Of a DNA stretch of 51,173 nucleotides, positions 1-33,428 are shown one piece after another. The first letter of the stretch is position 1; every line of letters starts with the position of its first letter. The DNA is from an uncultured Clostridiaceae bacterium (GTDB taxonomy: Bacteria > Bacillota > Clostridia > Monoglobales > Firm-18), in assembly GCA_964455565.1 (NCBI GenBank), contig CAYVWT010000003.1:1-51173 (forward strand), given 5' to 3'. Under the pieces are notes generated by a model, which searched no databases, was not told the DNA's origin, and saw nothing but the letters and a program-made list of their open reading frames with translations. The position numbers were made by a program, and so were the translations under genes.

Positions 1-41
1 ACCACCCAGTATATTCGGCAATTGTTTTACCTCATCCAATA

Positions 42-1862
42 TTAGCATACATTCCTGCCTGCATATTCTGTATACACAAAGCAGGTTTCACATTTATTGC
101 CATGTGCAATACAAAGGTTCCCGTTTACTTCCCAACATTTTTTATCGTATTGGAATTTAACCGGGCATTTATTGCAAATTTCACCCGAAACAAACCTCAT
201 ATTCCAGCAATAATCAAGCGAACAGTCGTTACTTGCTTTTTCTTTTCGTGTTCTATTAAGCCAAGAAAGCAGTGCATTAACAACATTTGAATCAAGCTGA
301 GTGCCTGAAACCTGTTTAATTGCATCTATCGCTTCATCATAGGTGCTTGCATCTCTGAAATTTCTGGGTGAGATTTTAGCAACGAAAAATTGTGCAATAG
401 CAAGCACTTTAGCGCCTATTGGTATATCATTGTCCTTAATTCCATAAGGGTAGCCACATCCATCAATTCTCTCGTGATGGTAGCGTATCATATTTGCAAC
501 CTTTACATCCCCATTTATGGCTTCTATTATATCTGCACCAACCTCTGAATGAAGCTTTATTACTTCATAATCATACTCTGAATATTTTCCTTTTGCAAGG
601 AATATATCGTAGGATAATGCAGCAATACCTATATTACTTAAATATGCCGCTAATTCAATATCACGAATTTCGTTCATCGGAAGCTTTAACTCATTTGCAA
701 TTCCACTCGCATAATACTCCATTAAGCTTGAAAACCCTAATGTATATGGGCTTAAATCATCAACCAAAGTGGAAATTAGCTTCAAGGTTTTTATGCTGTC
801 GTTGGAATTATCCGCAATTCTCAAAGGATTTTTAAACACCTCGGCTATTTTAGAAAACATCAACAGAAGAGAGCTAATTTGATAAGAATCCATATCATAA
901 ATCTGGTCATACCAAAAACCTGCAATTCCTGGGTTCTTACCATAACAAACATTAAATAAAATTAGTTGACGTGCTCCCTCTGAAGCTAAATATACAGGAA
1001 TCCTTTCAAAATTACTATCATTTTTGCTTATTATAGCTACTTTTTTATCTCCAAGAAATTCTTTTAAATAAAGGTGTAGGTCAGAGTCATATTTAAACAT
1101 TAGCTCACATTCATTTGAAAAGCCTGCATTTACCATTAGCTCAATTCCGTCATCTTCTTGGTTAAGGAAAAATCCACCTTTTGCTGAAATAGTTTTTGCA
1201 AACAGCCCAATTGCCATTTTATATATTCCTTCGCCGTTGATAATGCTGACGATACTTCTTATAGCCTGTTTTGATGTCTCGAGAATTTTTATTTTATTGT
1301 TCAATTGTTCTATGGATAAAACCATTGTCACAACAGGCTCGAGCTGTTTTGAAATATTTTGTAATCGGGCTTTAACTTTTCTGTTTAACGAAAATTTTGA
1401 CCTAAATTTAAGTTGAATAAGTGCATTTTCCCCCTTTACAGGAACATTTAAAATCTTTTCCTTATCAACTTCTATTATACCTATTTCACTTTTAACATCT
1501 TCGATGCTTATTCCAAGTGGGAAAACATGCCTCATTTTTTTATGAGGTATAAGCCCAGAATACGCCACATTAAGCTTGTCATCAGGCTCATTTTTAAACC
1601 GCACAGACCTCAATGAAAACTGAGATTTTTTTGAATCAGTCAAATAAAATGCATATTCATCAGCCTTTATTACAGATGAAATCATTTTAAATACTAAATT
1701 AACAGTTTCGTTTGTATTGTTAGCCTTTACGCAACAATCTATAATGCCATCATTAATTTTTTTCTCTTCCTTCACTTTTTTATCACTATTAATAAAAAGA
1801 GCTACTAATATTGCTACCACAACGGCTAACGCAAACACAATATAATAATAAATATCAATCAT
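42..1862 (-). CDS. Membrane-anchored protein with a degenerate HD-GYP domain and a C-terminal Cys-rich tail (candidate c-di-GMP receptor rather than an active phosphodiesterase)
   Basis: Track ORF 42..1877. The first ATG (1862) lies 8 nt after GGAGG, and the TTG at 1877 sits inside that RBS. The upstream gene stops at 1880-1882. There is one N-terminal TM helix (IYYYIVFALAVVVAILVALFI) and a long middle region that is GAF-like by architecture only (unverified). The family signature HHERIDGCGYPYG is present. Expected metal-ligand positions are substituted: H->F (SPYTLGFSS), HD dyad->SN (AAYLSNIGI, codons AGT AAT at 633-638), distal D->Q (LAIAQFFVA). The last 60 aa (nt 45-224) carry 9 Cys, including CNKC and CETC. 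Confidence 0.75.
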   Translation of the reverse strand: MIDIYYYIVFALAVVVAILVALFINSDKKVKEEKKINDGIIDCCVKANNTNETVNLVFKMISSVIKADEYAFYLTDSKKSQFSLRSVRFKNEPDDKLNVAYSGLIPHKKMRHVFPLGISIEDVKSEIGIIEVDKEKILNVPVKGENALIQLKFRSKFSLNRKVKARLQNISKQLEPVVTMVLSIEQLNNKIKILETSKQAIRSIVSIINGEGIYKMAIGLFAKTISAKGGFFLNQEDDGIELMVNAGFSNECELMFKYDSDLHLYLKEFLGDKKVAIISKNDSNFERIPVYLASEGARQLILFNVCYGKNPGIAGFWYDQIYDMDSYQISSLLLMFSKIAEVFKNPLRIADNSNDSIKTLKLISTLVDDLSPYTLGFSSLMEYYASGIANELKLPMNEIRDIELAAYLSNIGIAALSYDIFLAKGKYSEYDYEVIKLHSEVGADIIEAINGDVKVANMIRYHHERIDGCGYPYGIKDNDIPIGAKVLAIAQFFVAKISPRNFRDASTYDEAIDAIKQVSGTQLDSNVVNALLSWLNRTRKEKASNDCSLDYCWNMRFVSGEICNKCPVKFQYDKKCWEVNGNLCIAHGNKCETCFVYTEYAGRNVC

Positions 1863-1879: not shown

Positions 1880-3997
1880 TTATTGAGCTAAATTAATTGG
1901 CTTTGTACCATCTTGTTTTAGCTTGTATATTTTTAGTACATCATTTTCCCAATAAACTTCAAAATTCTCTTCTTGCTGGATTTTTTGCTGAATGTAATTT
2001 TCTATCCAATAATATGCCTTTGCCTCAACAATCCTGCGATTTTTATAATTAGTGTAGAACTTTTCATATGCCGCTCCCACGTCTGGGAAAGGTTGATTAT
2101 AATCCTCTTCAGATAGTGGGTTTGTTAAAACATACGGTTGTGCCTGATTAAGTGGCCGCTTTTCAATAAAAACAAATACATAGTCGGTTGGGAACTCAAT
2201 TTTTGCTTTTGGTTTAACTTGAGTTTCTTCAACGAATTGCCATAAATTATAATGCCATCCATACCCTAAGCTTTGTTGGTATTGTTCTACGGGTGATATT
2301 ATAGTCCAATTCAAAAGTGGAAATTCCGACTTAATTTTGTAATATGCATACGCTGCCTCGTCATATTCAAGCTTTGCTCCCACAGGCATAAGCTGTTTAT
2401 AATCCTGCGCTTGAAAAACCGTCATAATTATTAGTGCACCCATAGCAATTTTCACGATATATTTAATAAGCTTATGAAATGGGAAAAACTCAATAATATA
2501 AATTGCCATTGCAAATAAAACTACGACAATAACACCAAAAAATGTGCTTGCACGGGAAAATTCCATAACAGATGGAAAACCTACGTCTATTGAGCGAACC
2601 TGCGTGTATGTAAAGGCAGATAATACAACAAACATAACGAAAAGCTTCATTTTCCCTGTGTATTCCGGGGTTTTTTTGAAAAATATTCGTAAAAGTGCAT
2701 ACGCCAATATTACTATACCAAATATCATAAACAATTTCATAGCTGGATTTGTTTCAACGTATCTAAATATTTCTTCCTTCCAGTTAAGCTTAACGCTAGT
2801 CGTAGCGCTCTCTACAACGAAACCGAGTGACAATGCGTGGAATTTCATACCCATCGAAAGCGCAATTCCAATCGGAAGTAAACTGATTATAGTCGCAAAG
2901 CCCATTGACGCTAAAAGCTGTACGAATGTTTTGCCTTGAAATACCTTGTTAACATTGAGGATTGCAAGAATTACATATCCAATAACAAGGAACAGCGCTA
3001 CATAAAAGTGGATAAACATAGTAACAGCCAAAACCTCTGCCGCTAATATCATATATGTTTTTTTGTTTGTTGTAAAAAATAAATTTAAAAAATAAAACCC
3101 AGGTAGCAAAAATATTGTAGCATACTCCTGTGGAAGTGCAGACATTTGCCTCCAAATATTGTTTGAAGCATTTGGTAGTTCTGTGCCTAATACATACGCT
3201 GCCACGCCGATGAATATAATTAGGTATTGATTTTTAAAGCTCTTTTTTAGTATGTAATAAATTGAAAGAACTATTAAAAAGCTACCCATACCACCAAAAA
3301 ACCTTACTATAACCACAGGGTCTAAGAAAAATAGTTTGCTAATTGCAGAAATTATAGCCTCGTAACCGTATGGATATACTCCATCTTGGTAGATGCTGTT
3401 TATACCCAAATATTTCGTCCACGCTAAATGAACGTAACAGTCTGATGCGCCATAATAAAGAAACTCAAACGAATGTCTAAACCTAATTATAGCGGCAATA
3501 ATGAAAATTCCAAAGAGCAAAATGCCCGCAAAAGGATGCACAAAAAAATGTATGAAAGCATTTTTCAGTCTATCTGGCAACGCCTTTAAATATGCTTTTG
3601 CATATTTTTTTGGTCCACCCAAAAGCCCGGATTTACCATCTACTAAGTCCAAAGAAATAGAAAAAAACCCAACCTCTTCCTCTTTTACTTTATCAGTTTT
3701 AATTGAATAATTTTTGCGAATTGCAAAATATGCAATAAGCAAGGCAATTATTGCAATTGTTAAAGAAATTGTTTCGTAAATTCTAAACAAAACAAGTAAG
3801 TGAACTAAAACAATTATCGCAAAATTAGAATGAGTTAGTGATATAAATACTCTATCCGTCCAATCGTCGGATAATTCATCAAAGGTAACAGCCTTCGAAG
3901 GTATAAATATATATAATATGTAAAAAGCAAGTACAACTTTTAGAAAAAGAATTATTGTAAATTGCAACGGAAACATCATATCACCTCTTCTTTTCAA
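1880..3997 (-). CDS. Large polytopic membrane protein (over 12 predicted TM helices) with a C-terminal soluble domain; possible GT-C-type or polymer-modifying transferase, function unverified
   Basis: 705-aa ORF, hydrophobic throughout. An acidic cluster follows TM1 (FDELSDDWTD). The roughly 170-aa hydrophilic C-terminus is homologous to that of the adjacent 4010..6001 product (NWTIISPVEQYQQSLGYGWHYN vs QWMIISFQEGYTLAFGNGFHMN; DYVFVFIEKRP vs EDIFIFYEKNI). Only 2 nt separate it from the downstream gene's RBS. Confidence 0.6.
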   Translation of the reverse strand: MKRRGDMMFPLQFTIILFLKVVLAFYILYIFIPSKAVTFDELSDDWTDRVFISLTHSNFAIIVLVHLLVLFRIYETISLTIAIIALLIAYFAIRKNYSIKTDKVKEEEVGFFSISLDLVDGKSGLLGGPKKYAKAYLKALPDRLKNAFIHFFVHPFAGILLFGIFIIAAIIRFRHSFEFLYYGASDCYVHLAWTKYLGINSIYQDGVYPYGYEAIISAISKLFFLDPVVIVRFFGGMGSFLIVLSIYYILKKSFKNQYLIIFIGVAAYVLGTELPNASNNIWRQMSALPQEYATIFLLPGFYFLNLFFTTNKKTYMILAAEVLAVTMFIHFYVALFLVIGYVILAILNVNKVFQGKTFVQLLASMGFATIISLLPIGIALSMGMKFHALSLGFVVESATTSVKLNWKEEIFRYVETNPAMKLFMIFGIVILAYALLRIFFKKTPEYTGKMKLFVMFVVLSAFTYTQVRSIDVGFPSVMEFSRASTFFGVIVVVLFAMAIYIIEFFPFHKLIKYIVKIAMGALIIMTVFQAQDYKQLMPVGAKLEYDEAAYAYYKIKSEFPLLNWTIISPVEQYQQSLGYGWHYNLWQFVEETQVKPKAKIEFPTDYVFVFIEKRPLNQAQPYVLTNPLSEEDYNQPFPDVGAAYEKFYTNYKNRRIVEAKAYYWIENYIQQKIQQEENFEVYWENDVLKIYKLKQDGTKPINLAQ

Positions 3998-4009: not shown

Positions 4010-6001
4010 TTACTCGCCATCCCATATTCTTCGCTTCATATCTTCCTTATCTAACTCTTGATGAATTTCCCATATTTCAAGGTCATCATCACTGCTATAC
4101 AAACTTATATTGCTATGAGTACTTTGATATTTTTCAATCCATTGCGAAAGCCTTATATTTTCTTCCAGCTTTGCTTGATACTCTTCACTTTCAACATCTG
4201 CATTATTGCTAAATATATTTTTTTCATAAAATATGAATATATCCTCTGTTTTAAGCACCTTATTAGGCTCTACAGTATAATCTACAAGCTTTTCCTCCTC
4301 GGGGTTATATATATTAATAAAATCACTAATATTCATATGAAATCCATTGCCAAAAGCAAGCGTATATCCCTCTTGAAAGCTAATTATCATCCACTGTGTG
4401 GGGCGAAATGTTTTGGATATTCTAAGGTATTGTTCAACCGTACTGCTGTGCTCTACTTTTCGCGGTATAATTGGAGCCTGTGGCAAATAAGTTAATATCA
4501 ATGCTATTGTTGCGATTAATATTGAATATCCAATAAGTCTACCTTTTATTATTAGCCCAATAAAATCTAAAATTACTACAATTCCAAATGATACTATTAT
4601 AGGTATTAGAAGTGACCAAAGGGTGCTTGCGCTTTCTACCAAATAGCTACTGCTTGTAAATAAAGCTCCATAATAATATGCTAAAAATGAAATTATAGAA
4701 AAAATCAAAACCCATAATTTAGCTATAAACAATTTCTTGTTTTTAAATGCAGGGATTAGGCTAATGAATACTAAAAGAATACAGCCTATTGCGATATAAT
4801 CAAATACTCTAAGATTTATCATTTTAACTTCATCTAAATATGTATAAATCATATTCATAGACGCAGTATTAAATGGCTTACCCATTAAAAAGCCTATAAC
4901 CATAGGCATTATCGATAATATTGCAGAAATTAACATTATAACAAATACTTCAAAAACTTTGTATATTTTGTTTTTTGCATCCCTTATAATATTGGCAAAT
5001 AATAATGATATAAGCCCTATACCAAGAAACACAAACGCCAAAGGATGGATTAAACCAATCACAGTTGCCCCCAAAGAAGCAACTAAAAAATCTTCCCACC
5101 TTGAATTATTGATAAAATCATAATAAAAATATAAAACAGGGAATATAAATACAAATGCAAATTGCTGAGGGTTTGCAGCCACAAGTGACGGCATTACATT
5201 TATAAACATACTTCCAAGCATACCATAAATAACAATAGAAAAAATTCCACCTATTTTGCTTTTAATAGTCCTTGATATAAAAAAGTACATTCCGAGGGCT
5301 ATCATAAGGCTGTTAACAGGGCCAGCAAAATTAACGATATATACTTGGTCCATTAGTGCAAATTTGTGAAGCGTTTCTAAAAATATATAGAACCCTTGGG
5401 GGTAAATATCCCCTGCAAATAGAATCCTATATGCTATGTATTTCATCCACAAAAGTGATGTAAATGTTTCACTTGCCGCTGGTGCGATATTTGTAAAAGT
5501 GCTAAATAAATACAAATATCCAGAATATGCAAGTAGCAACGCTACAAGCATTGTGTGAAGAAAAACCCAGCCATCTCCAAAATAATTTGATATTATTACG
5601 TTCGCTCTTTCTGTTTTCTCATCAAATAATTGCAGTAGCTTTCTTTCTATTCTTTCTATTCTTTCAATATGGTTTATAAAAAGAATATTTAAAATATCCT
5701 TCATATCTTTTATAATATCGCCAGAAGCAATTCTAAGCTTATAGTATTTATAGGCAACACTTAAAATAAGAACTGCAACCATAGTAATACCTTCAAATAG
5801 CTTTAACAAAACAGTAATATATCCGAAAACTATTACCCAAAACATCATTTTTACATAATTTGCAACAATGCTTTTTGTAATATCCTCTTTGTCATAAATA
5901 AAAACAAATCTTGGAACAATAACAAAAAGCAAAGTATAAGTGAAAATATATTTAATGAAACATATTATTATGTCTGTGGATAGCCCCTGCAAATATATCA
6001 C
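4010..6001 (-). CDS. Large polytopic membrane protein, tandem paralogue of 1880..3997
   Basis: 663-aa ORF with the same architecture as its neighbour: multi-TM N-terminal part plus a soluble C-terminal domain. Shared blocks include ASETFTSLLWMKYI..GDIYPQGF vs ASDCYVHLAWTKYL..DGVYPYGY. It contains an in-frame 9-nt tandem repeat encoding IERIERIER. Confidence 0.6.
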   Translation of the reverse strand: MIYLQGLSTDIIICFIKYIFTYTLLFVIVPRFVFIYDKEDITKSIVANYVKMMFWVIVFGYITVLLKLFEGITMVAVLILSVAYKYYKLRIASGDIIKDMKDILNILFINHIERIERIERKLLQLFDEKTERANVIISNYFGDGWVFLHTMLVALLLAYSGYLYLFSTFTNIAPAASETFTSLLWMKYIAYRILFAGDIYPQGFYIFLETLHKFALMDQVYIVNFAGPVNSLMIALGMYFFISRTIKSKIGGIFSIVIYGMLGSMFINVMPSLVAANPQQFAFVFIFPVLYFYYDFINNSRWEDFLVASLGATVIGLIHPLAFVFLGIGLISLLFANIIRDAKNKIYKVFEVFVIMLISAILSIMPMVIGFLMGKPFNTASMNMIYTYLDEVKMINLRVFDYIAIGCILLVFISLIPAFKNKKLFIAKLWVLIFSIISFLAYYYGALFTSSSYLVESASTLWSLLIPIIVSFGIVVILDFIGLIIKGRLIGYSILIATIALILTYLPQAPIIPRKVEHSSTVEQYLRISKTFRPTQWMIISFQEGYTLAFGNGFHMNISDFINIYNPEEEKLVDYTVEPNKVLKTEDIFIFYEKNIFSNNADVESEEYQAKLEENIRLSQWIEKYQSTHSNISLYSSDDDLEIWEIHQELDKEDMKRRIWDGE

Positions 6002-6014: not shown

Positions 6015-7622
6015 TTATGATTGAAAATATATATAATAGTCTAAATTTCTAAATAATTCGAGTATTTTCCGTGAGCTTAATATTAAAAATACTATTGAAC
6101 CAACCAAAAGCCCAAATATTGAATAATAATAGCTAAACCACCTACTAAGCACAAACCCAATAATAATATTTGCCACAAGAGAAATAAGTACTGCCCTGCT
6201 TGCCATTTCGGGCTGTGACATAGAAAACAGCGTAACACAATTCATAAGCGCAACAGATATTATTGAATAGCTAATTAGTCCAACTATAAAAACAAAATGT
6301 GTCACATAGCTCTCTAAAAAGCCACTTCTAAAACCTTCTATTGGGTAACGGTCAAAGTAAAACACAACCAAATATGTAAAAAGTGCACTTATAACTGATA
6401 TAATTGCTACATAAATAAGGCGTCTGAAATAAATTTTCCTAAACACAGTATCGATTCTAAAAGCATCCTTGCCATAAGCATTTCTTTGCTTTTCGGATAG
6501 CTCGTCCATTAGCTTACTAACAACAACCTCACACGCACCCATTGGAACAATTAGCATTAAAAGTGCAAAATCAAGCCCTAATTCATACGCACCTCTAAAC
6601 CAAATGATATATGGCATATACGAATTATTTGTAGACCAACCAATTATTCTATCCATAAATAAAAATGCAAAATATAAAAATCCATAAGCAAAAAATGGAT
6701 ATGTAGTGTAAAGCGTAATTGATTTTTTGGGAAGAGCAGGCTCTAACCCCTTCCCCATTTTACTTTCTTCCTTGTGGAAAAAATATAGAACCAACAAAAT
6801 ACCTGCTATGGAAACTATAAATAGTGCAATTATCTGAGAAACAATAATATTAAGATTTAGTACCTTGAAAAGCAAATATACTATTGCAATACCTGCAACA
6901 ATAAGACCAGTAAAAGTAAACTCTCTCTCTAAAATATACATTACCGTAACCGAAAACCAAATTGCACACAAGAAAATATAGTATAGTAAAATTACCATCA
7001 TCATTTTAAATGTAAAAGCCTCGAAAACACTATTGAATAGGAAAAATACAAGTGAAACCACTATGGTTAAAATATAGCCTAATTTTATAAAATACATAGT
7101 TATTTTCCGTGCCAAATTGAAATAACCTTGCCGTATATACATAAATCCTCTTCTTGCGATTGCCTGCATAAACCCACCAACGGTTAAAAAACTAAATATT
7201 GTACCAATAGCTATACAGGTTGCAAGCTCGACAGATAAATATTCATACGACCAAAGCGAAAAACGAAGTGTAAGCATAGCGATAACTGAAATCGCCATAG
7301 GAATTGCGAAAATTACCCCTCTTATAAAGCTTTTAAAAACAATGCCTGCCTTATGTACTAAGGAGTTCTTTTTTTCATCTGCAAACGAAGAAAAGTTAAC
7401 GTCATCATTAACCACATTAAATATTTCAAGGGCCAACTCGAAAACATCAGTCATACCAAATATATTAAGAACTCTACCATCACTCCATCCAATAGACTCT
7501 AAAATGGCGGCAATTTCATAATGATTTTCGGGATACGGCTGTTTTTCCAGCACCTCGCCTATTAAGTTATTAAAGGTTGTTTCTAACCGTTCAGCATTAA
7601 CATTTTTTTCAAAACGAATCAT
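6015..7622 (-). CDS. Polytopic membrane protein with a roughly 100-aa cytoplasmic N-terminal domain; possible exporter, family not recognised
   Basis: 535-aa ORF. The N-terminal 100 aa are hydrophilic (…HYEIAAILESIGWSDGRVLNIFGMTDVFELA…) and are followed by about 10-12 hydrophobic segments. It sits where a PelG-type exporter would be expected downstream of the PelF-like gene. I could not confirm PelG homology by eye. Confidence 0.45.
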   Translation of the reverse strand: MIRFEKNVNAERLETTFNNLIGEVLEKQPYPENHYEIAAILESIGWSDGRVLNIFGMTDVFELALEIFNVVNDDVNFSSFADEKKNSLVHKAGIVFKSFIRGVIFAIPMAISVIAMLTLRFSLWSYEYLSVELATCIAIGTIFSFLTVGGFMQAIARRGFMYIRQGYFNLARKITMYFIKLGYILTIVVSLVFFLFNSVFEAFTFKMMMVILLYYIFLCAIWFSVTVMYILEREFTFTGLIVAGIAIVYLLFKVLNLNIIVSQIIALFIVSIAGILLVLYFFHKEESKMGKGLEPALPKKSITLYTTYPFFAYGFLYFAFLFMDRIIGWSTNNSYMPYIIWFRGAYELGLDFALLMLIVPMGACEVVVSKLMDELSEKQRNAYGKDAFRIDTVFRKIYFRRLIYVAIISVISALFTYLVVFYFDRYPIEGFRSGFLESYVTHFVFIVGLISYSIISVALMNCVTLFSMSQPEMASRAVLISLVANIIIGFVLSRWFSYYYSIFGLLVGSIVFLILSSRKILELFRNLDYYIYFQS

Positions 7623-7635: not shown

Positions 7636-8697
7636 TTACTGTTGAAGTGTCATATTTATTATAAGCTCAGGTAATTTTGATTCTCTTTCTGCTACAATTA
7701 TATCTTCCTCGGTTAAAACCCTACCCTTAGGTATTACAATATTATTATTACTGTCTAACAAGTCTTCCCCTGCAATTTTGCCAAGTATTAAAGCATTACG
7801 CATTTTCTTAATATCGTCATCACTTGAATTAATCTCTTCACTTGTATCGCTAAAATTATCGTCCATTGGTATTTCTTCTTCGGTATTTTCAAAATCGTAT
7901 AAATTCTCGTACTCATCAAACTTATCGGAATAGTCGATGTCACTATTTAAAAAATCTAATTCGTCATCAAAAGTTTTGGTATGGGTAGATTTTTTGGGTA
8001 TCTGCACCTTATTTTCTTCAACTTCTTCCTTGCTTAAATATTTATTTTTAAAGGCAAATAGCTTTTGGATAGTATCTAAGGAGCTTCCGTCTGCCGTGGT
8101 TCTTCTTGCCCCATCTTTTTCTAATATCGATTTTTCTTCGATCATTTTTCCTTCGAACAATTCTATTACATTTTTATTTGTCTTAGCAACATTTTCGGGA
8201 CTGCGGTTTACTTTTGACTTATCCTTTATTTTAGAAGTAACATCATCAACATTTTCTTTTAATAGCTTAACGACATCCCCTAATAATGATTCTATTTTTG
8301 CCTTGTTTTCCTCAATTTCTTGGCGAAGTCTTTCTGCTATTTTATCATATTCGACTAATTTATCATAGCTTTTTTCCATCAATTGATTTGCTTCTTCATC
8401 TGCCAACATATTTATAAGCGCAATAGTTTTTTCAATACGTTTTAATGCATTATCCATCACTTCATTTGATAATGGTGACTCTCCTACAACTTCATCCTCG
8501 TAAACTATTTCCTCTTTTTTAGAGGCTTGAAGCTCTGAAAGCAATTTATTTTTATCCTTATAAAGCTTATCAATTTCCTCTGATAAATCATTTATATCTT
8601 TACTTTGTTTTTTTGTTAGGTTGTCAAAGTAAGTGTCTACATCTGACTTATTTAAACCAAAAAACTTAGTTGGAATATTAAACCTAAGACCTCTCAT
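7636..8697 (-). CDS. DivIVA-like coiled-coil protein with an acidic linker and a small C-terminal domain
   Basis: AGGAGGTG RBS 5 nt upstream of the ATG at 8697. The N-terminus FNIPTKFFGLNKSDVDTYFDNL fits the DivIVA/GpsB N-terminal pattern (F..GY...EVD.FL). K/E-rich heptad coiled coil follows. The first roughly 150 aa are paralogous to the N-terminus of the 13451..15340 product. Confidence 0.65.
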   Translation of the reverse strand: MRGLRFNIPTKFFGLNKSDVDTYFDNLTKKQSKDINDLSEEIDKLYKDKNKLLSELQASKKEEIVYEDEVVGESPLSNEVMDNALKRIEKTIALINMLADEEANQLMEKSYDKLVEYDKIAERLRQEIEENKAKIESLLGDVVKLLKENVDDVTSKIKDKSKVNRSPENVAKTNKNVIELFEGKMIEEKSILEKDGARRTTADGSSLDTIQKLFAFKNKYLSKEEVEENKVQIPKKSTHTKTFDDELDFLNSDIDYSDKFDEYENLYDFENTEEEIPMDDNFSDTSEEINSSDDDIKKMRNALILGKIAGEDLLDSNNNIVIPKGRVLTEEDIIVAERESKLPELIINMTLQQ

Positions 8698-8726: not shown

Positions 8727-9158
8727 TTAATAACCTTTTGCAATAGAATCGATATAATCTATAAGGTTTTGCAAATCTGTTTTCATTTCATTTGCTTTTT
8801 TCTCTCGAATAAGAATTAAAGACTTCCTCTTTTCTAATTTCATCGCAACATTTTTCTGTACTTTTATTACTTTGTCGGTAGATTTAATATGAGCATCAAA
8901 CAGGGCCTTCGCAATTTCCTTTTGCTCTTTCCCCTCCACATCATCACGATGAACGACACGCTTTTTCACTACCACAGACCTATTATTTTTGTTATACTCT
9001 ATCTGTTCGTGTAATTCATCAATCTCTTTTTTCAGCTCTTGTATCTTGTCTTCTAACTCTTTTTTCTTTTCTTCAAATTCAAGATTTAACTTATCTATGC
9101 TTTTTTCAACTTCAGAAGCACTATAACCAAATAATGAAACTCGCTGAGTTATCTGCAT
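8727..9158 (-). CDS. Small DivIVA-like coiled-coil protein
   Basis: The ATG at 9158 lies 6 nt after GGAGGTG, and the track start (GTG at 9167) is inside the RBS. The N-terminus VSLFGYSASEVEKSIDKL is followed by a K/E coiled coil (EEKKKELEDKIQELKKEIDELHEQ). Confidence 0.6.
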   Translation of the reverse strand: MQITQRVSLFGYSASEVEKSIDKLNLEFEEKKKELEDKIQELKKEIDELHEQIEYNKNNRSVVVKKRVVHRDDVEGKEQKEIAKALFDAHIKSTDKVIKVQKNVAMKLEKRKSLILIREKKANEMKTDLQNLIDYIDSIAKGY

Positions 9159-9186
9159 GAAGTTCACCTCCTATTTATATTTTAAA

Positions 9187-10920
9187 TTAATATATATTTA
9201 AGTTAGCCAAAGCGGTGGTTTTTTGGATTTCAAAATTTGCTTTGTCATTTTTCCCTAATTTCTTGTATGCATTTGCTATTTCAAGTGTAAGCACCGGAAC
9301 TAATGGCGTATTAGGTGAAGACGCTATGGCTTCTTTAAACTGCTCAATCGCTTCGTTAATATACCCCATATTAAGCAATGTATAACCTTTTTCTGCATAA
9401 AACTTTTGTTTCTGCAAAAGCGATATAGGTAGTACCTTTTTAATTTCGATATCTGCTGTCATTAATCCTTTATATGAATTATAATGGTTTTCTAACACTT
9501 TTTCAATAGAAAAATAACTTATTGCTCTCTCACGAGACCTTTTTCCCAAATCTGCAATCATTTCTGGGTCCTTAAGTAGCTTTATAATTCCTGCCGCAAG
9601 CTCATCTGGAGCCTTTGGTGTAACTAATATTCCACAATCTCCAATTGCCTCTTTAATTCCACCAACATCGGTTGATACCACAGGTTTCCCACTCATCATT
9701 GCCTCGACAACTGAATAAGGAAATGCTTCTGAAATGCTTGATAATGCTATTATATCACCACTATTATATGCAGCTGGAACGTCATTTGTGTGCCCTGCAA
9801 AAATAAAATTATCTTTAAGATCAAGCTTTGCAACTCTTTTTAAGCATTCTTGATAATAATCCTCAACTGAAACAGAACCATATACAACCATCTTAACATC
9901 TGGTATTTCTTTTCGGATAATATCGGTAGCCTCAATAAGTGAGATAATATCTTTTAATGGATCTATTCTTGCAATTGATACAACTGTTGGCGAGCTATTT
10001 TTATTTTTCACCTCCATAGGAGCAAAAATGTTATTGTCTACACCATTATATATTACATTTATCTTTGACTTTTCAACGCCAAAACGTTCTTCCCAACGGG
10101 TGTTATATTTACAAACAGGTGAAACAATATCTGCATAATGATAATTCACACTTATTATTGAATTTATCATACGGATAAAAAATGTATTTAAAAAAGACGG
10201 ATATCCCCTTTTAGATAGGGATAGATATTGCTCACGAATATACACTCCATGTTCTGTAAGCATATATGGTGTTTTGTTTTCGATTTTTGATAATATGCAA
10301 GGAATTCCACAAAATGCCGCCGCCGCAGAATGAGTAACATCAACCTTTGGAATTGGGGTGTTTAGCGTAACCATAAACCTGTAAACCCAGCCTAAGCTTT
10401 GAATAAGGGCATATATGCTTGGGGCATCGATATTATTTTCTGCATCATTTGCAAAATCACTAACAAGTTCCTTATATACTTCCCATGTAATTTCAGATTT
10501 GAAGCTTTTTTTATATTCATAATTTTGAAAATATAAATATAAATCGTAAAATATTTCCCCAAGCTTTTGTGGGTTCTTTTCAATACTTAATATTTCAAGT
10601 ATAAGCACCTTAAAAAGAGGTATAAATTTTTTAGAAACTACATCGTCTGTCGTTCTTTTTTTAAGCAAATATACCTTTGAAAAAGGCACATCAAGGTGTT
10701 CGCATGGTTCTTCCGTGCCCCAAAGAGGGACTTTTAAAAGCTCGGTAGAAGAAGGTAGGTCATATATTTGTGAAACGTATGGGTTCATCATTAGGCTGTA
10801 TAATACATAATCAACACCTTGTAGCTGTTTAACAAGAATATCACACCATGTACTAACGCCGCCCGGATGGAACGGATATGTTCCCTCTGTTGACAACATT
10901 ACTTTTATATTATCGCTCAC
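9187..10920 (-). CDS. pelF: PelF-like GT4 glycosyltransferase with a C-terminal TPR extension
   Basis: GTG start at 10920, 5 nt after GGGAGGG. The N-terminal LSTEGTYPFHPGGVSTW matches the EG.YP...GGVS.W motif of the PelF/DUF3492 N-domain. A GT4 E-x7-E motif is present (SEAFPYSVVEAM, then GKPVVSTDVGG). The last roughly 75 aa are TPR-like (YAEKGYTLLNMGYINEAIEQFKEAI…LEIANAYKKLGKNDKA). Confidence 0.7.
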   Translation of the reverse strand: MSDNIKVMLSTEGTYPFHPGGVSTWCDILVKQLQGVDYVLYSLMMNPYVSQIYDLPSSTELLKVPLWGTEEPCEHLDVPFSKVYLLKKRTTDDVVSKKFIPLFKVLILEILSIEKNPQKLGEIFYDLYLYFQNYEYKKSFKSEITWEVYKELVSDFANDAENNIDAPSIYALIQSLGWVYRFMVTLNTPIPKVDVTHSAAAAFCGIPCILSKIENKTPYMLTEHGVYIREQYLSLSKRGYPSFLNTFFIRMINSIISVNYHYADIVSPVCKYNTRWEERFGVEKSKINVIYNGVDNNIFAPMEVKNKNSSPTVVSIARIDPLKDIISLIEATDIIRKEIPDVKMVVYGSVSVEDYYQECLKRVAKLDLKDNFIFAGHTNDVPAAYNSGDIIALSSISEAFPYSVVEAMMSGKPVVSTDVGGIKEAIGDCGILVTPKAPDELAAGIIKLLKDPEMIADLGKRSRERAISYFSIEKVLENHYNSYKGLMTADIEIKKVLPISLLQKQKFYAEKGYTLLNMGYINEAIEQFKEAIASSPNTPLVPVLTLEIANAYKKLGKNDKANFEIQKTTALANLNIY

Positions 10921-10957: not shown

Positions 10958-11311
10958 TTACTCTTGGCTTTTAAATTTATCTACTTCCATTTTTAATAAT
11001 CCAACCTCTTGTATTAAAGTATTTACAAGAATAAATGTTTTTGATAATGCCTTTGTTAAAGAAAGGATTATTAGTATAAGCCCAAAGGTTATAATAAGAA
11101 ACAACGTATTTACAGGCTGTTTAATGGACAAAATATCGGATATTAATTCTATTGCTCCTGGCAGAATAGTTATTATTATCAGTCCAATTGTTGATACAAG
11201 CCAAACAAGTGCATAATGTAATTCTAATTTTCTATTTGCAACAAGATTGATTATATATATAAGAAAAACTGTTGTTGTAACTAATAGAATAATTTGTAGC
11301 CTTGTGTCCAA
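10958..11311 (-). CDS. Small 4-TM membrane protein (DUF2304-like), typically partnered with a GT2
   Basis: 117 aa with three to four hydrophobic helices and a short charged C-terminus (LLKMEVDKFKSQE). It lies immediately downstream of a soluble GT2, which is the usual DUF2304 context. Confidence 0.5.
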   Translation of the reverse strand: MDTRLQIILLVTTTVFLIYIINLVANRKLELHYALVWLVSTIGLIIITILPGAIELISDILSIKQPVNTLFLIITFGLILIILSLTKALSKTFILVNTLIQEVGLLKMEVDKFKSQE

Positions 11312-11344: not shown

Positions 11345-12046
11345 TTATTTTTTAGTTCTTTTTGCAATAGCTGTGATAAGAATTGCGGTTATAACCTTTA
11401 TCATATAATAAACTGATGCCTTTTTACCTATACTTGAGCTTCCGTTAATTCTTTCGTTCATTGTAACTGGAACTTCACATACTTTAAGACCATATTTACT
11501 TGCAGTAACTATCGAGCCTGGCTCTGGATAATCATGCGGATATTCCCAAGCAAAAAGCCTTGTTGCCTTTTTATCACAAACTCTGTAACCAGAGGTAGGA
11601 TCTGAAATATCTTCGCCTGTAAGTATTCTAATAAGCCAGTATAAAATTAATATTCCAAGCCTTCTAATTGCAGATGACTGAAAACCCTCGTAGGTGATAA
11701 ATCTTGAACCAACACAAAGATTATTCCCATTCTTAACAGCCTCTATCATTTTCTCCATACAAGCTGGGCTATGCTGTCCGTCGCCGTCTAATTGGACTAC
11801 AATATCATAATTATTATATACGGCATATTTAAACCCTGTTTGTCTTGCCCCACCTATGCCTAAATTGGCAGGTAATTTAACTACCATCTCTCTATTTCTT
11901 TCTCGGCATATTTTGTAGGAATTATCAATAGAACCATCATCTATAACAAGCACGTCATAGTAGGGGCATTTTTCCCTTATTTCATCTAAGACAAGAGAAA
12001 TGTTTTTTTCCTCGTTAAAAATCGGAATAATAATTAGTACCTTCAT
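11345..12046 (-). CDS. Family 2 glycosyltransferase (Dpm1/GtrB-like polyprenyl-phosphate sugar synthase type)
   Basis: MKVLIIIPIFNEEKNI…YDVLVIDDGSIDNS…VQLDGDGQHSP (GT-A fold with DxD). A hydrophobic or amphipathic C-terminal helix is present (YYMIKVITAILITAIA). Confidence 0.8.
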   Translation of the reverse strand: MKVLIIIPIFNEEKNISLVLDEIREKCPYYDVLVIDDGSIDNSYKICRERNREMVVKLPANLGIGGARQTGFKYAVYNNYDIVVQLDGDGQHSPACMEKMIEAVKNGNNLCVGSRFITYEGFQSSAIRRLGILILYWLIRILTGEDISDPTSGYRVCDKKATRLFAWEYPHDYPEPGSIVTASKYGLKVCEVPVTMNERINGSSSIGKKASVYYMIKVITAILITAIAKRTKK

Positions 12047-12088: not shown

Positions 12089-13405
12089 TTAGTATTTAAA
12101 TTCGTCATTTTCCCAATAGCCATTTTTAATTGTGCTATCTGCAGAAACTTGCTTGCCATTACCATTTTTCTTTCCGTTTTTCCATTCACCTTCATATAAT
12201 TCGCCAGTTGAATAATAAAAAGTGCCATATCCGTTAAATTCGCCATTACTCCACTGACCATCATAATAATTGCCATTATTCCATTGGAACCGACCTTTTC
12301 CAGAAATAAGCCCCTTATGCCATCCTCCAGAATAACTGTCACCACTTACCCATCTCATTGTGCCAATTCCTTGAAAAACTCCATCAACAATCTCGCCATC
12401 ATAATTATCGCCATTTGGCCATTGAAGGTTACATTTTCCATTCATACTATCGTTCTTCCAACCGCCAGAATATATAAACCCATCGGTTCGAGTTAGTTTT
12501 CCTTGCCCCTCTCGAATTCCGCCTGAAACCTGCCCTTCATACCTGCTACCGTCCTCATAATTTACTGCACCATAACCATTTGGAATACCATTAAAGCTTT
12601 CACCAATATATGCCGAACCATCTTTCATAGCAAGAACTTGGTTTTGATTAGAGTTAGAGTTAGAGTTAGAATTCGTATAATTATTATCTGTATTTGAAGT
12701 ATAAGTGTTGAAAACTGGCGCCTGATAATGCCCGTTGTAATAAGAAAAACCCAGCCTTACAAGGCGTTCTGTTTGAAGTTGGTTATTACTTGCTATTTTG
12801 TCAATGAGCACAGTATTATCATATGTTTTAACCTTCAAAGTTTCCCATAAAATTTCAATCATATCATTCTTGTTAAGAACTTTATCGTTTAAATTTTTAG
12901 CTTCTTTTGGAGGAATACCGCCAAAATAGGAATTGATATAAGCAGAAATTGTCGACATATTACTATCTAAGCTATATCCCATAGATTTTAATAGCATAGC
13001 TGTGAAAGTCTTTCCATCAATAAGCCTTTTAGGTGAAATGCTGTTACCTTGAATATCTAACAGTATCCTTTGATTAATTCCATAAGCAATATATTTTCTT
13101 GCCCAATCAGAAACCGTTGATCTGTCATTATAATTATTTAAGATGTTCCTAACATCGTATTCTGAGAGGCTTTGAATATCACTTTTCGATTTTACTAATC
13201 TCAGCAAAAATACAACCGCTGTTTCTGTATCAACGAAAGAGTTTAAGTCGGGCTCGAAAAAGCTTTGCGAAACACCATTATAAAAACCTAAATCATATAG
13301 AATTCTTGCTTCTTCAATATAGCTATTAGAAGCATATACATTAAAGCTAAGCGAAAATGTTAAAAGCAAAATAATACTTATTATATTTTTCATTATTCTT
13401 ACCAT
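12089..13405 (-). CDS. Secreted MORN-repeat protein with an SLH-like N-terminal module
   Basis: Signal peptide MVRIMKNIISIILLLTFSLSFNVYA. The N-terminal half has SLH-like segments (GFYNGVSQSFFEPDLNSFVDTETAVVFLLRL; DWARKYIAYGINQRIL). An (NS)n/NQ linker follows, then at least 7 MORN-type repeats (YEGQVSGGIREGQG, YSGGWKNDSMNGKC, YDGEIVDGVFQGIG, YSGGWHKGLISGKG, YDGQWSNGEFNGYG, YEGEWKNGKKNGNG). Confidence 0.7.
   Translation of the reverse strand: MVRIMKNIISIILLLTFSLSFNVYASNSYIEEARILYDLGFYNGVSQSFFEPDLNSFVDTETAVVFLLRLVKSKSDIQSLSEYDVRNILNNYNDRSTVSDWARKYIAYGINQRILLDIQGNSISPKRLIDGKTFTAMLLKSMGYSLDSNMSTISAYINSYFGGIPPKEAKNLNDKVLNKNDMIEILWETLKVKTYDNTVLIDKIASNNQLQTERLVRLGFSYYNGHYQAPVFNTYTSNTDNNYTNSNSNSNSNQNQVLAMKDGSAYIGESFNGIPNGYGAVNYEDGSRYEGQVSGGIREGQGKLTRTDGFIYSGGWKNDSMNGKCNLQWPNGDNYDGEIVDGVFQGIGTMRWVSGDSYSGGWHKGLISGKGRFQWNNGNYYDGQWSNGEFNGYGTFYYSTGELYEGEWKNGKKNGNGKQVSADSTIKNGYWENDEFKY
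12640..12676. repeat. In-frame hexanucleotide tandem repeat (gagtta)n encoding the (NS)n linker of the MORN protein
   Basis: gattagagttagagttagagttagaattc read directly. It translates on the minus strand as NSNSNSNSN. Confidence 0.9.
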
Positions 13406-13450: not shown

Positions 13451-15340
13451 TTAAACGTACATATATGCCTCTTCTTCAGGCAATGGTTTTGCTAAATAAA
13501 ACCCTTGCAAATAATCACATTTCATATCTACAAGCATCTCACATTGAATATTATCTTCAACGCCCTCTGCTACTACTTTAAGCCCTAAATCATGGGTTAT
13601 GCTTATAATTGACCTAATAAACATTTCGCATTTTTCATTTGTTTTTAAATCGTCTAAGAAGGTTTTGTCTATTTTAATAATAGAAACTGGCATTTTCAAT
13701 AAATATGATAGGCTTGAATAGCCTGTGCCAAAATCGTCAATTGAAATAGTAATGCCCATATTTCTAATTTGTTCAATCTTCAAGCAATTTTCTTTAAAGT
13801 TATCCATAAAGCAGGATTCTGTTATCTCAAACCCTAAATTGTTTGGAGAAACACCTATTTGTTCAATAATTTTGGTAATATTTCCGATGAATTCATCTTT
13901 TAATATCTGCGTTGGTGTAAAATTTATATACACAATCAAATTTTTCTTACTGTTTTTTGAATTTATCCTCTTAGCAAAATAGCACGCCTTTTTAAATATA
14001 AGGTCGGTTATGTCATCTAATAGAGCCTCTTTTTCTGCTATTTGAATAATGTTATAAATAGGAATTTTATTGTATCTTTCATCTGTCCACCTAAGAAGCG
14101 CTTCAAACCCATACAATTCCTTGGTTTCAGATAAATACTGTGGTTGATAGTATAGTTCAAGTGCTTTTTGTTCTATTGCCTCAACTAAGTCAAGCTTCAT
14201 ATCATTACTAAATTTCAAATCATCAATCAAAACTTCATCTGCAAAATAGTATAAATTTTTGCCTTGATCTTTCGACTTATATAAAGCAATGCCGGCATAA
14301 TTCATAATAGCTTCGCTATTATTTGAATTGTTATCATATACAGAAATACCAATATTGGCAGATAACTCAGCCTTTTTATCTTTAACTATAATTTTTCTGC
14401 TAATTTGCTTTAAAATAATTTTCGCTAATTTCCCAATAGTATCTGCATTGCCTATGCCATTATATATTATGCCTACTTGGTCATAAGAGAGCCTTGCAAC
14501 ATATAGGTTGTCATTTATGCCTTTAATTCTGGTTAAAACTTCATTTATGAGTATATCATCAGAATATGAATCGAACAAGTAATTTGCAACAATAAATTCA
14601 TTTATTTCTATAAGAAGCAATGCTCCACTTGCTTTTTCGCCACCATCTGCACTATTTAAAATTGCATTTAAATTTTTTAAAAATTCCGTCTTTGTATCAT
14701 TATATGACGCCAGGCTTTTTATTACTTTTTCTTCAACAATTTTTGGTATTTTGTTGTAGGGCTTTGCCTCTTCATCTCTTTTACCAAAGAGTCCTATCAC
14801 ATCATTTTTATTATTTCCTGTAAAATCAACATTTTTTATCACGTTAAAATCTTCGTCATCTGATACGTGCATATTACCTTTTATGTGTATATCATCTATA
14901 TTTGTTTTTAGCAAAGAAATAACCTGAGCCAACAAATTTTCAATTCTTTCTTTTTTGTCATCAATTTCGTTTTGCAGGTCATTTAGGATTGCGTCATATT
15001 CTTCAATCTGAAACTTCGCTCTTTCTATAATTTGTTCGATTTTCTGATTTGCAATTTCGTCAATAAGTGAAATTGTTTTTTCAACCCTTTTATGAGCATC
15101 AATCATAAGCTCATTTTGGTTTATAAGTGGGGCTTCATCTTTATATATTATTTGATCTTGCTTCGCTTGTTCAAGTTCAAGAAGCAAATTTTCTTTTTTA
15201 GTTTCAAGCATTTTGATTTCTCTAATTAGCTTGTTTAATAATTTATTATGTCCTTCTAAAAGGCTCTCAATAAAATAATCGACATCATCTTTGTTAAGCC
15301 CTAAATATTTAGTTGGTATAGTTATATTTGGTGGTAACAT
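13451..15340 (-). CDS. DivIVA-like N-terminal coiled coil fused to a degenerate GGDEF domain and an intact EAL domain (c-di-GMP phosphodiesterase)
   Basis: The likely start is the ATG at 15340 (MLPPNITIPTKYLGLNKDDVDYFIESL), which aligns with the start of paralogue 7636..8697. The GGDEF motif position reads SYDQV (VARLSYDQVGII). EAL catalytic motifs are all present: YGFEALLRW, YINFTP, GFEITES, IDDFGTGYSS, IKIDKTF, VAEGVED, LQGFYLAKP. Confidence 0.8.
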   Translation of the reverse strand: MLPPNITIPTKYLGLNKDDVDYFIESLLEGHNKLLNKLIREIKMLETKKENLLLELEQAKQDQIIYKDEAPLINQNELMIDAHKRVEKTISLIDEIANQKIEQIIERAKFQIEEYDAILNDLQNEIDDKKERIENLLAQVISLLKTNIDDIHIKGNMHVSDDEDFNVIKNVDFTGNNKNDVIGLFGKRDEEAKPYNKIPKIVEEKVIKSLASYNDTKTEFLKNLNAILNSADGGEKASGALLLIEINEFIVANYLFDSYSDDILINEVLTRIKGINDNLYVARLSYDQVGIIYNGIGNADTIGKLAKIILKQISRKIIVKDKKAELSANIGISVYDNNSNNSEAIMNYAGIALYKSKDQGKNLYYFADEVLIDDLKFSNDMKLDLVEAIEQKALELYYQPQYLSETKELYGFEALLRWTDERYNKIPIYNIIQIAEKEALLDDITDLIFKKACYFAKRINSKNSKKNLIVYINFTPTQILKDEFIGNITKIIEQIGVSPNNLGFEITESCFMDNFKENCLKIEQIRNMGITISIDDFGTGYSSLSYLLKMPVSIIKIDKTFLDDLKTNEKCEMFIRSIISITHDLGLKVVAEGVEDNIQCEMLVDMKCDYLQGFYLAKPLPEEEAYMYV

Positions 15341-15499
15341 ATTATTACATTCCTTCCCTTGTATAAGCATAAACAGTATATACTTATATTAATTACACAA
15401 TGTAATTATACCTGTTATTAAACATATATTAAAGGCTTTTGTTATTTTTGGAATATGTAATGTATTTTTTAAATCATAATAACTAAAAATATAACGTTT

Positions 15500-21237: not shown

Positions 21238-21301
21238 AAAAAAAGCCGTATATAAACCGAATATGAAGATTTCTCTACATAATATTGGAATAATAAACGG
21301 C
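21238..21301 (-). terminator. Intrinsic terminator/attenuator inside the 5' leader of the lectin gene
   Basis: Minus-strand RNA GCCGUUUAUUAUUCCAAUAU…AUAUUCGGUUUAUAUACGGC forms a long imperfect hairpin with a 4 G-C pair base. It is followed by UUUUUUU (A-run at 21238-21244 on the plus strand). It lies about 90 nt upstream of the RBS and ATG at 21145. Confidence 0.65.
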
Positions 21302-21393
21302 AGCTGGCTGTCATATCCTAAACGAATTATGGACTTAGACCCTATAGCTTTGTGCAATTGCCTTTCAGCAATTATACTTTTTACGATTGTTAT
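21290..21393 (-). promoter_or_regulatory. GEMM-I (c-di-GMP-I)-like riboswitch aptamer candidate, possibly a variant
   Basis: Minus-strand RNA …AAAAAGUAU-AAUUGCU-GAAA-GGCAAUU-GCACAAAGCUAUAGGGUC-UAAG-UCC…GGA-UAU-GACAGCCAGCUGCCG. One hairpin is capped by a GAAA tetraloop (21356-21373). The adjacent hairpin (21306-21342) carries a near-canonical 11-nt tetraloop receptor: UCUAAG/UAUGA versus canonical CCUAAG/UAUGG, with a compensated C-G to U-A pair. The CAAAGC linker matches the ACGCAAAGC linker of GEMM-I. The 3' flank GCCGUUUAU is the 5' arm of the terminator. Confidence 0.55.
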
Positions 21394-26363: not shown

Positions 26364-26377
26364 TTAATTAGGGTTGC
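26354..26377. terminator. Perfect 24-nt palindrome shared by the 3' ends of two convergent genes (probable bidirectional hairpin)
   Basis: GCAACCCTAATTAATTAGGGTTGC. It contains the TAA stop of the lipoprotein gene (26361-26363) and the TAA stop of lgt (26364-26366 on the minus strand). TTTT follows on the plus strand. Confidence 0.45.
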
Positions 26378-27158: not shown

Positions 27159-27178
27159 AACGTCACCCTCTAAATGAT

Positions 27179-29724: not shown

Positions 29725-29905
29725 TAGCCTTTCAGGCTCACAAAATTTTATTAATGTCATACCACACACTTATCGTGAGCCAGATAAGGCGTTAAAATGG
29801 TACTTTGCACATAGGCGTTTCGAAGCAGCTTTTGCTACGAAAATTTCGCCTGTGCAATAAATTCCTGCGGAGCATGTTAGTTTGAAAGCGGTTTTCTTTC
29901 AAACT
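29720..29905 (-). promoter_or_regulatory. Structured 5' leader element, copy A (upstream of the M16 peptidase pair)
   Basis: It shares identical blocks with 35777..35947 (plus-strand reading): a 32-nt block accattagcctttcaggctcacaaaattttat, a 19-nt block cgtgagccagataaggcgt, and a 13-nt block gtgcaataaattc. The blocks are separated by stems that differ between copies but stay complementary. Confidence 0.55.
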
Positions 29906-29935
29906 ACACCTCGCAAATATTTTTATAGAACAAAA

Positions 29936-29952
29936 GCCCGAACATATCGGAC
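29936..29952 (-). terminator. Possible intrinsic terminator after the 163-aa membrane protein gene
   Basis: Minus-strand GUCCGA-UAUGU-UCGGGC is followed by UUUUGUUCU. The stem is short (6 bp including G-U). Confidence 0.4.
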
Positions 29953-29968
29953 TTTTAGATTATTCCTA

Positions 29969-30460: not shown

Positions 30461-30475
30461 TTATGTAACACTCCT

Positions 30476-31195: not shown

Positions 31196-31296
31196 ACGCT
31201 AAAAACTCCAAGCTTATACTAATTTCATTTTAAATTAGTATTATTTTTATTATTTCATAATTATAGCATTATTGGTACAAAAAAACAAGTATTATA

Positions 31297-32199: not shown

Positions 32200-32207
32200 A
32201 ATTTCTC

Positions 32208-33362: not shown

Positions 33363-33391
33363 AAATATATCCACCTCATCATTAAATCAAT

Positions 33392-33415: not shown

Positions 33416-33428
33416 ATATATTTTACCT

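Follow-up and report, generated by a model that had tools for sequence, protein, structure and literature searches.

The window analysed here is a stretch of 51,173 nucleotides on contig CAYVWT010000003.1 from an uncultured Clostridiaceae bacterium. At one end it carries, on the minus strand, a gene for a membrane protein of 606 residues whose HD-GYP domain is degenerate. By analogy with characterised receptors, this protein is considered, at slightly better than even probability, to be a non-hydrolysing sensor of cyclic di-GMP (c-di-GMP) or another cyclic dinucleotide and a subunit of a Gram-positive Pel-type machine. An original prediction on the same DNA had given it the role that PelD holds in Pel systems. 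The reading is carried by the pattern of lost and retained residues in the pocket, by the likeness to the degenerate HD-GYP receptor DvhD and by the constant place of the gene in a PelF-containing cluster.

Lost and retained residues of the HD-GYP pocket

The Pfam model HD_5 (PF13487) matched residues 367-532 of the longer mechanical open reading frame (611 aa, with TTG at 1877) at E 9.5e-29 and 100.8 bits (cutoff 27.2). Profile positions 2-170 of 170 were covered, that is, the whole HD-GYP domain. Substitutions were placed via residue-by-residue HMMER alignments to V-cGAP3 (5Z7C), DvhD (9RBZ, 9RC0) and PmGH (4MCW), and the motif coordinates were checked by translation. The complete ligand set of an active HD-GYP phosphodiesterase was not found: four of the eight metal ligands are replaced, together with the counterparts of PmGH K225 and D308. 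F377 (YTLGFSS, nt 726-746) aligned with PmGH H189, S409 and N410 (YLSNIGI, nt 624-644) with H221 and D222, and Q491 (AIAQFFVAK, nt 375-401) with D305. These are the three changes (F, SN and Q) that had been claimed from the letters alone, and the signature HHExxDGxGYP, claimed to be intact, is likewise confirmed as HHERIDGCGYP (residues 462-472, nt 447-479), invariant in the family. Two losses go beyond that claim: the lysine of HDxGK (K225) is I413 and the second Asp of DxxD (D308) is V494. An alignment shift as the source of these substitutions was rejected; three independent pairwise HMMER alignments and the profile alignment agree, and the flanking motifs are in register.

The middle His is intact in KLHSEVGA (H438, equivalent to PmGH H250). 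Only H250, H276 and H277 are kept of the PmGH metal ligands, and the position of E185 is occupied by Tyr, as in the binuclear subfamily. These three His are taken by us to form the second metal site, from di-iron HD domains generally. The crystal of PmGH with c-di-GMP contains iron in the G site only (PMC4159591) and is therefore a structural precedent for nucleotide binding at a single metal site. In the same enzyme the alanine mutants of H189, H221, D222, K225 and D308 each abolished activity and D305A markedly reduced it (PMC4159591). All six of these activity-critical positions are replaced in the window protein, and the domain is for this reason very probably hydrolytically dead. The catalytically dead domain of the original prediction thus stands, with two more losses than it had listed and as a prediction from sequence.

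The homolog search returned about 30 full-length relatives, with identity down to 27%, and a profile alignment of 120 listed proteins was made. The six positions are F/Y, S (N in one), N, I/V/L/T, Q and V/I/L in 30 of 30 family members. Among the other HD-GYP proteins of the same search (n=90) the first five positions are H, H, D, K and D in 89-90, and at the sixth (PmGH D308) 73 have D and the rest E, Q, H or S. H438, H462, H463 and E464 are invariant in the family. The pattern is one of targeted removal of the H...HD...D site, in which the nucleotide pocket and one cluster of three His were retained.

DvhD of Desulfovibrio vulgaris is a degenerate HD-GYP protein that binds c-di-GMP without metal and without hydrolysis, and its stalk geometry changes (9RBZ, 9RC0; PMC13090378). 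As in the present case, it is a membrane protein that has lost HD-GYP metal ligands (HD reads SQ in DvhD), and the two structures compare at a root-mean-square deviation of about 2.1 Å over 179 columns when the AlphaFold2 (AF2) model is used in Foldseek. Its ligand is contacted by the Tyr of GYP, the Arg and Tyr of an R-x-Y motif and a Tyr before the first helix. The four have counterparts here: Y471 (DvhD Y621, PmGH Y285), R500 (DvhD R650, PmGH R314), the aromatic F502 (F/Y in the family; DvhD Y652) and Y373 (DvhD Y523). R503 is in addition the counterpart of PmGH K317, and Y427 stands at the position of DvhD L577. The contact residues are invariant or conservatively kept across the family, down to 27% identity.

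The differences from DvhD are also several. In DvhD there are a PAS domain and, in the periplasm, a dCache domain; the window protein has one transmembrane (TM) segment, no periplasmic domain and GAF-like domains. DvhD signals inside-out to a LapG-like protease controlling adhesins, and the operon here is of PelF type. The HH pair kept here is lost in DvhD (MN), the residues of its bridging c-di-GMP site (P567 and K520) are not conserved here, and DvhD has neither a Cys tail nor a link to a polysaccharide operon. DvhD and the present family are independent degenerations in different phyla.

The family alignment gave an AF2 model with a mean predicted local distance difference test (pLDDT) score of 80. 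Its order is an N-terminal helix, two alpha/beta domains with a long helix between them, the HD-GYP domain and a mostly loop C-terminal tail. Residues 2-24 are the only segment with a Kyte-Doolittle hydropathy above 1.6 and fall within a model helix at residues 2-45, in agreement with the membrane anchor that had been proposed. The top Foldseek match was PmGH (4MCW, 4MDZ; PMC4159591), aligned over 379 columns. It shares the arrangement of GAF, helical stalk and HD-GYP, the loop HHExxDGxGYPxxxxxxxI and the substrate residues Y285, R314 and K317 (the last being R503 here). It differs in being active and in having the full set of eight metal ligands as well as K225 and D308; six of these residues are replaced in the window protein. 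Tandem-GAF structures (1MC0, 3LFV, 8W26) were also matched at E of about 1e-5 to 1e-6 and include PDE2A, PDE5 and phytochrome GAF-PHY proteins. A profile of the N-terminal 355 residues matched the PtsP GAF domain 3CI6 in the PDB (E 5e-4); the search recovered generic GAF domains only, and not PelD. The N-terminal region alone gave nothing meaningful in Pfam and NCBIfam scans. GAF-like domain 1 contains a near-invariant loop, SYSGLxPxKKxxYxPPL (residues ~98-118, window ~1509-1571, minus strand), a candidate site for contact with a ligand or a partner. The loop overlaps residues 91-110, the longer of the two stretches in which the pLDDT of the model falls below 50.

The conserved cluster, its hydrolase-like partner and the Cys-rich tail

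The degenerate HD-GYP gene lies inside a cluster with PelF and a divergent PelG-like protein in 24 of the 24 degenerate-clade loci compared, the window included. The loci compared include Fodinisporobacter ferrooxydans, Paenibacillus aurantiacus and several metagenome-assembled genomes (MAGs). When genome contigs were scanned with the full-length alignment, generic HD-GYP patterns dominated and only 2 of the 80 loci belonged to the family; 12 loci were found by a pattern search of metagenome DNA. Many of the related clusters add a CE4 deacetylase, a MurJ-like flippase and an ATP-grasp gene.

The gene had been described as the last of its operon, and this was refuted. Its stop codon is followed by a sequence resembling a ribosome-binding site, GGATGAGG, and by a TTG at window position 21, where a PelA-hydrolase-like (GH114-like) gene begins. 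The orthologous gene follows the HD-GYP gene in two close loci, L100 (91% identical) and L094 (81% identical). In most related loci that extend far enough, the GH114-like gene (250-277 aa) is directly beside the HD-GYP gene; in Paenibacillus aurantiacus (L003) one gene intervenes. The best PDB match of the relatives' hydrolase-like protein is the PelA hydrolase domain 5TCB (E 8e-8), and these proteins have neither a signal peptide nor a TM segment (for example L100 307-1023 and L084 11911-12699). Three representatives (P0168, P0183 and P0187) carry the hydrolase-like domain as a C-terminal fusion, and the tail then sits between the HD-GYP and hydrolase-like domains. Such fusions are a Rosetta-stone link and imply a cytoplasmic partner. 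A cytoplasmic PelA-type hydrolase was unexpected.

The tail of the window protein has nine Cys, as claimed in the original prediction, which had treated it as an addition foreign to HD-GYP proteins; it is not a one-off and marks a whole clade. That the tail is an oddity of the window or the product of a frameshift was rejected, because about 100 representatives at 50% identity share it. Across 26 aligned tails the invariant residues are seven Cys and a His (C552, C563, C566, C576, C584, H587, C591 and C594), the first and last Cys being variable. One family member, P0011, lacks the tail. The tail alone matched no Pfam or NCBIfam model (the tails of the window protein and of P0012 gave nothing against NF045718 at E up to 10), and its AF2 model (pLDDT 82) gave no Foldseek match in the PDB.

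A profile of the tail was searched against 1.84 billion representative proteins and found 144 matches. Most are proteins 550-650 aa long that end in the tail, and three longer ones bear the GH114-like domain after it. The weaker matches were small stand-alone proteins, fusions to a MerR-type helix-turn-helix (HTH) domain and one fusion to a histidine-kinase ATPase. Eight of the nine small matches scanned fit the two-CW domain model NF045718 end to end, at 14-29 bits against a cutoff of 35. The two modules have in common a pair of CW motifs and a similar Cys order. The two-CW domain has ~80 residues; the tail has ~50, contains a conserved His-Gly and does not itself match the model. The tail thus appears to be a compact, distantly two-CW-like module, its link to NF045718 being transitive. 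Two-CW-like modules were seen in P0233, P0241, P0245, P0251 and P0238, which comprise MerR-type HTH and histidine-kinase ATPase fusions and stand-alone proteins of 67-120 aa. The fused and stand-alone forms are consistent with a portable sensor module.

The tail-bearing representatives comprise about 54 with the degenerate signature (strict filter) and 44 others that keep H, HD and D or E. The latter form a sister group (among P0154-P0246, representatives at 50% identity) of the same length and with the same two-CW-like tail, and all 44 have a residue other than Lys, usually Met, at the position of K225. Five of their loci were looked up. Three are in the same cluster with the GH114-like gene adjacent (P0177 in L087 and L088; P0226 in L103); the other two are a short contig with only the GH114-like gene downstream (L089) and an orphan. 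In a rough neighbour-joining tree the tail-bearing proteins group together, the intact forms are basal and the degenerate ones form one nested clade of about 75 representatives (50% identity), with an intermediate form (R-HN-M) at its base. The named members of the degenerate clade are Bacillota. For the intact-ligand clade a single labelled MAG was found, of Ignavibacteriales, and this label may be a binning error. The dead pocket is thus best read as a single, old and stably kept derivation in a lineage already tied to the cluster. The original prediction had put the protein in the job of PelD with a different fold. The different fold stands; since intact basal relatives occur in the same cluster, the receptor state would be derived from an enzyme-like component of that cluster and would not be a new recruitment in place of PelD.

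Operon and remaining features of the window

The operon is formed by genes of the minus strand with short gaps: GT2, DUF2304, a PelF-type GT4, two DivIVA-like proteins, a 535-aa protein, two large membrane proteins and the degenerate HD-GYP protein (Table 1). Promoter and terminator counts were close to those of shuffled sequence, so that the limits of the operon were set from synteny and from how short the intergenic gaps are. Pfam and NCBIfam scans of the operon revealed no PelD, GGDEF, PilZ or other c-di-GMP receptor domain, and PelE and PelD had no detectable homolog there in the same scans (nor PelD in the PDB profile search).

Table 1. Features of the window with their positions, strand and the basis of each assignment.
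Feature	Position	Strand	Basis and remarks
First 7 codons (TTG, LPNILGG) of PelA-hydrolase/GH114-like gene, cut by window edge	1..21	-	relatives' orthologs
Degenerate HD-GYP protein gene	42..1862	-	606 aa, stop codon 42-44; ORF call, Pfam HD_5, family alignment
Cys-rich tail, residues 547-606, two CW motifs	45..224	-	family alignment, profile search
Degenerate HD-GYP domain, residues 354-541	240..803	-	pairwise and profile alignments, translation
GAF-like alpha/beta domain 2, residues 210-344, helical stalk to HD-GYP	831..1235	-	AF2, Foldseek
GAF-like alpha/beta domain 1, residues 50-173	1344..1715	-	AF2, Foldseek, profile
Single N-terminal TM helix, residues 2-24, then Lys-rich stretch	1791..1859	-	hydropathy, AF2
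705-aa polytopic membrane protein, conserved in cluster	1880..3997	-	ORF, synteny; no Pfam, NCBIfam or PDB match
663-aa polytopic membrane protein, distant paralog of 705-aa protein	4010..6001	-	ORF, synteny; no Pfam or NCBIfam match
535-aa membrane protein, divergent PelG-like	6015..7622	-	homolog annotations
353-aa coiled-coil protein, DivIVA-like N-terminus	7636..8697	-	ORF, synteny
146-aa DivIVA-like coiled-coil protein	8727..9167	-	weak DivIVA-type and DivIC-type matches
PelF-type GT4 glycosyltransferase (DUF3492 plus GT1), C-terminal tetratricopeptide repeat (TPR)	9187..10920	-	NCBIfam, Pfam
DUF2304 small membrane protein	10958..11311	-	Pfam E 3e-19
GT2 resembling polyprenyl-phosphate sugar synthases	11345..12046	-	Pfam E 1e-22; NCBIfam PpgS and AglJ below cutoffs
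GGDEF-EAL protein, degenerate GGDEF (SYDQV), intact EAL	13451..15370	-	two genes upstream of operon
c-di-GMP-I riboswitch	21296..21388	-	Rfam RF01051, 63.3 bits against gathering score 35, full-length

The PelF-type protein matched the PelF equivalog NF038011 with 141.6 bits (cutoff 100) and Pfam DUF3492 at E 2e-36. Its TPR is located at residues ~507-537. In classical Pel systems the TPR partner is a separate protein, PelE, for which this C-terminal repeat could conceivably stand in. The 535-aa protein has more than 400 homologs, with ~50% identity in Paenibacillus, Clostridium, Pelotomaculum and Ferviditalea, and no sequence match in the PDB. A precomputed PF16933 (PelG) match is present on 10 of the 120 listed homologs, and the window protein itself has none in Pfam. 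The 705-aa and 663-aa paralogs are conserved throughout the cluster family, beside GT2, DUF2304 and, in relatives, the MurJ-like flippase; that they are lipid-linked-sugar transferases is a speculation. For the 146-aa protein, the closest relatives L002 and L101 were the only loci in which a clear counterpart could be seen. The cluster is adjoined by a gene for a MORN-repeat protein (12089-13405, minus strand), which recurs beside it in L002, L086 and L101.

Signalling by c-di-GMP is represented nearby. The riboswitch lies directly 5' of a gene (18575-21145) for an 856-aa surface protein with legume-lectin, Big_9 and SLH domains, ~19 kb upstream of the degenerate HD-GYP gene; this lectin gene is co-directional with the Pel-like operon and upstream of it. 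The organism therefore uses c-di-GMP at the locus. The N-terminal ~150 residues of the GGDEF-EAL protein are common to it and to the 353-aa operon protein (43% identity, E 4e-31), a hint that the shared module docks the EAL phosphodiesterase at the same assembly. Housekeeping genes occupy 26364-40081 (lgt, two M16 peptidases, prmA, dnaJ, dnaK, hrcA, hemN-like and lepA) and place the cluster on the chromosome of a low-GC (~33%) Bacillota-type genome.

Proposed mode of action, alternatives and meaning for Pel-type clusters

The proposed protein would be a single-pass, membrane-anchored cytoplasmic pseudo-phosphodiesterase with the order TM, GAF-like, GAF-like, degenerate HD-GYP and Cys7His tail. 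By analogy with DvhD, c-di-GMP or a related cyclic dinucleotide would be bound and not hydrolysed, and a single residual metal may take part in the binding. The binding would shift the helical stalk and the geometry of the dimer, as it does in DvhD, and the shift would modulate the membrane synthase complex, the PelA-hydrolase-like partner or both. Polysaccharide output would thereby be set post-translationally, which is the role of PelD exerted by a different fold. For the tail, Zn or an Fe-S cluster is the most likely ligand, and it may be a structural docking element or a second input (redox or metal).

To our knowledge the c-di-GMP sensor job in Pel machines is known so far only for the PelD fold. 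The gene for PelD accompanies pelF and pelG in P. aeruginosa and B. cereus, and the protein, in which a membrane anchor and a GAF domain are joined to an inactivated c-di-GMP-enzyme domain, has been proposed to control polymer synthesis post-translationally (PMC7112168). It differs in its four TM helices and in the RxxD I-site of its degenerate GGDEF domain, where the window protein has HD-GYP, one TM, two GAF-like domains and a Cys tail. No counterpart of the cytoplasmic PelA-hydrolase-like partner exists in the PelD mechanism. With a GGDEF domain absent and homology undetectable, the window protein is not a PelD; it is analogous to PelD in architecture and not a member of that family. The PelD role originally assigned to it is supported by the conserved link to the PelF cluster, by the PelD-like layout and by the lack of a PelD, GGDEF or PilZ candidate in the operon, and is weakened by the identity of its tightest partner. 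Degenerate HD-GYP domains are already an accepted concept. An example is PA2572 (YN-GYP) of P. aeruginosa, which has a non-canonical HD dyad, no detectable c-di-GMP degradation and a regulatory role (PMC3411652); it differs in being a soluble REC-domain response regulator with another substitution pattern, no polysaccharide operon and no Cys tail. An HD-GYP protein linked to a pelF/pelG cluster was not found in the literature searched, surveys of Pel included.

Several points weigh against the sensor reading. The tightest partner is the PelA-hydrolase-like protein and not PelF, and the output may therefore differ from that of PelD. The best PDB sequence match is a 3'3'-cyclic GMP-AMP (cGAMP) phosphodiesterase and DvhD also accepts cGAMP, so that the ligand may be a cyclic dinucleotide other than c-di-GMP. 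Three DvhD contact positions are unmatched (K582 is Tyr, M646 is Lys and E668 is unaligned), and a residual metal site, hence some chemistry, is possible from the invariant H438, H462, H463 and E464. Because sister proteins with intact H, HD and D share the cluster, the ancestral role may have been local degradation and not reception. No PelD homology appeared in the N-terminal profile search of the PDB, the PelG identity of the 535-aa protein is only marginal by sequence, and no CE4 deacetylase is found between 42 and 12046, though many related clusters have one.

The adjacency of the hydrolase-like gene in most loci and its fusion in three representatives could also be understood if the protein were a nucleotide-independent scaffold, with the exposed GYP loop and the Cys tail tethering the hydrolase-like or the degenerate GGDEF-EAL protein to the membrane machine. 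A protein of the latter kind is encoded near the operon, RpfG is documented to bind GGDEF proteins in a manner that depends on its GYP motif (discussed in PMC4159591), and PA2572 regulates without detectable c-di-GMP-degrading activity. This is nevertheless unlikely: Y471, R500, R503 and the aromatic residue at 502, the nucleotide-contact set, are invariant down to 27% identity, and a pure scaffold is not expected to keep a buried pocket such as the one whose residues H438, H462, H463 and E464 are invariant. These same three His and the Glu of HHE would suit a protein that is still an enzyme, with a mononuclear H438/H462/H463 site (completed by N410 or E464) and slow hydrolysis of c-di-GMP, pGpG or another substrate, acting as a local sink or trigger phosphodiesterase as the intact-ligand sister clade would. 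Basal relatives of the same cluster keep H/HD/D, and HD-GYP metal sites are heterogeneous (PA4781, 4R8Z, is bimetallic). Such an enzyme is quite improbable, however, given that six residues are replaced at once where each single alanine mutant of PmGH abolishes or strongly lowers activity, and that DvhD with comparable losses was inactive with every metal tried. The bridging Asp and the Lys are also gone, and with them the canonical bridged-hydroxide nucleophile.

The lowest probability is given to a protein that is primarily a redox or metal sensor, in which the tail (perhaps with the His cluster) is the input controlling the hydrolase-like partner and the HD-GYP domain is a relic. The invariance of seven Cys and one His, the presence of the tail in dead and intact clades alike, its distant relation to stand-alone, MerR-type HTH-fused and histidine-kinase ATPase-fused modules and its position directly before the hydrolase-like domain in the fusions all agree with it. 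It leaves the conservation of the nucleotide-contact residues unexplained, and P0011 lacks the tail and keeps everything else. The two inputs are not mutually exclusive.

The non-hydrolysing sensor of the Pel-type machine remains the favoured reading. A wider form of it is tentative and rather doubtful: that the family is a second, independently evolved, HD-GYP-derived class of cyclic-dinucleotide receptor and the missing post-translational switch of Gram-positive clusters with pelF and pelG only. It would join c-di-GMP, sensed in a metal-depleted pocket with one remaining His3 site, to a redox or metal signal from the tail, with its output on a cytoplasmic hydrolase-like enzyme to which it is sometimes fused. 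We know of no synthase-dependent exopolysaccharide system that is controlled by editing or braking the growing polymer inside the cell.

Gram-positive bacteria have few known c-di-GMP receptors. Earlier surveys noted pel operons among them with no identifiable genes of the system beyond pelF and pelG (PMC7112194). The present family is a concrete candidate regulator for PelF/PelG-like clusters without a recognisable PelD, and the cluster has cultivable hosts, Paenibacillus species and Fodinisporobacter. Two uncharacterised elements, the two-CW-type Cys module and the cytoplasmic PelA-hydrolase-like protein, are made tractable by it. Intact, intermediate and dead pockets occur within one orthologous component, and the path from phosphodiesterase to receptor is thus open to direct study. 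If c-di-GMP is indeed bound, the 2026 result on DvhD, obtained in one proteobacterial adhesin system, would then also apply to another phylum and to a second output unrelated to the first.

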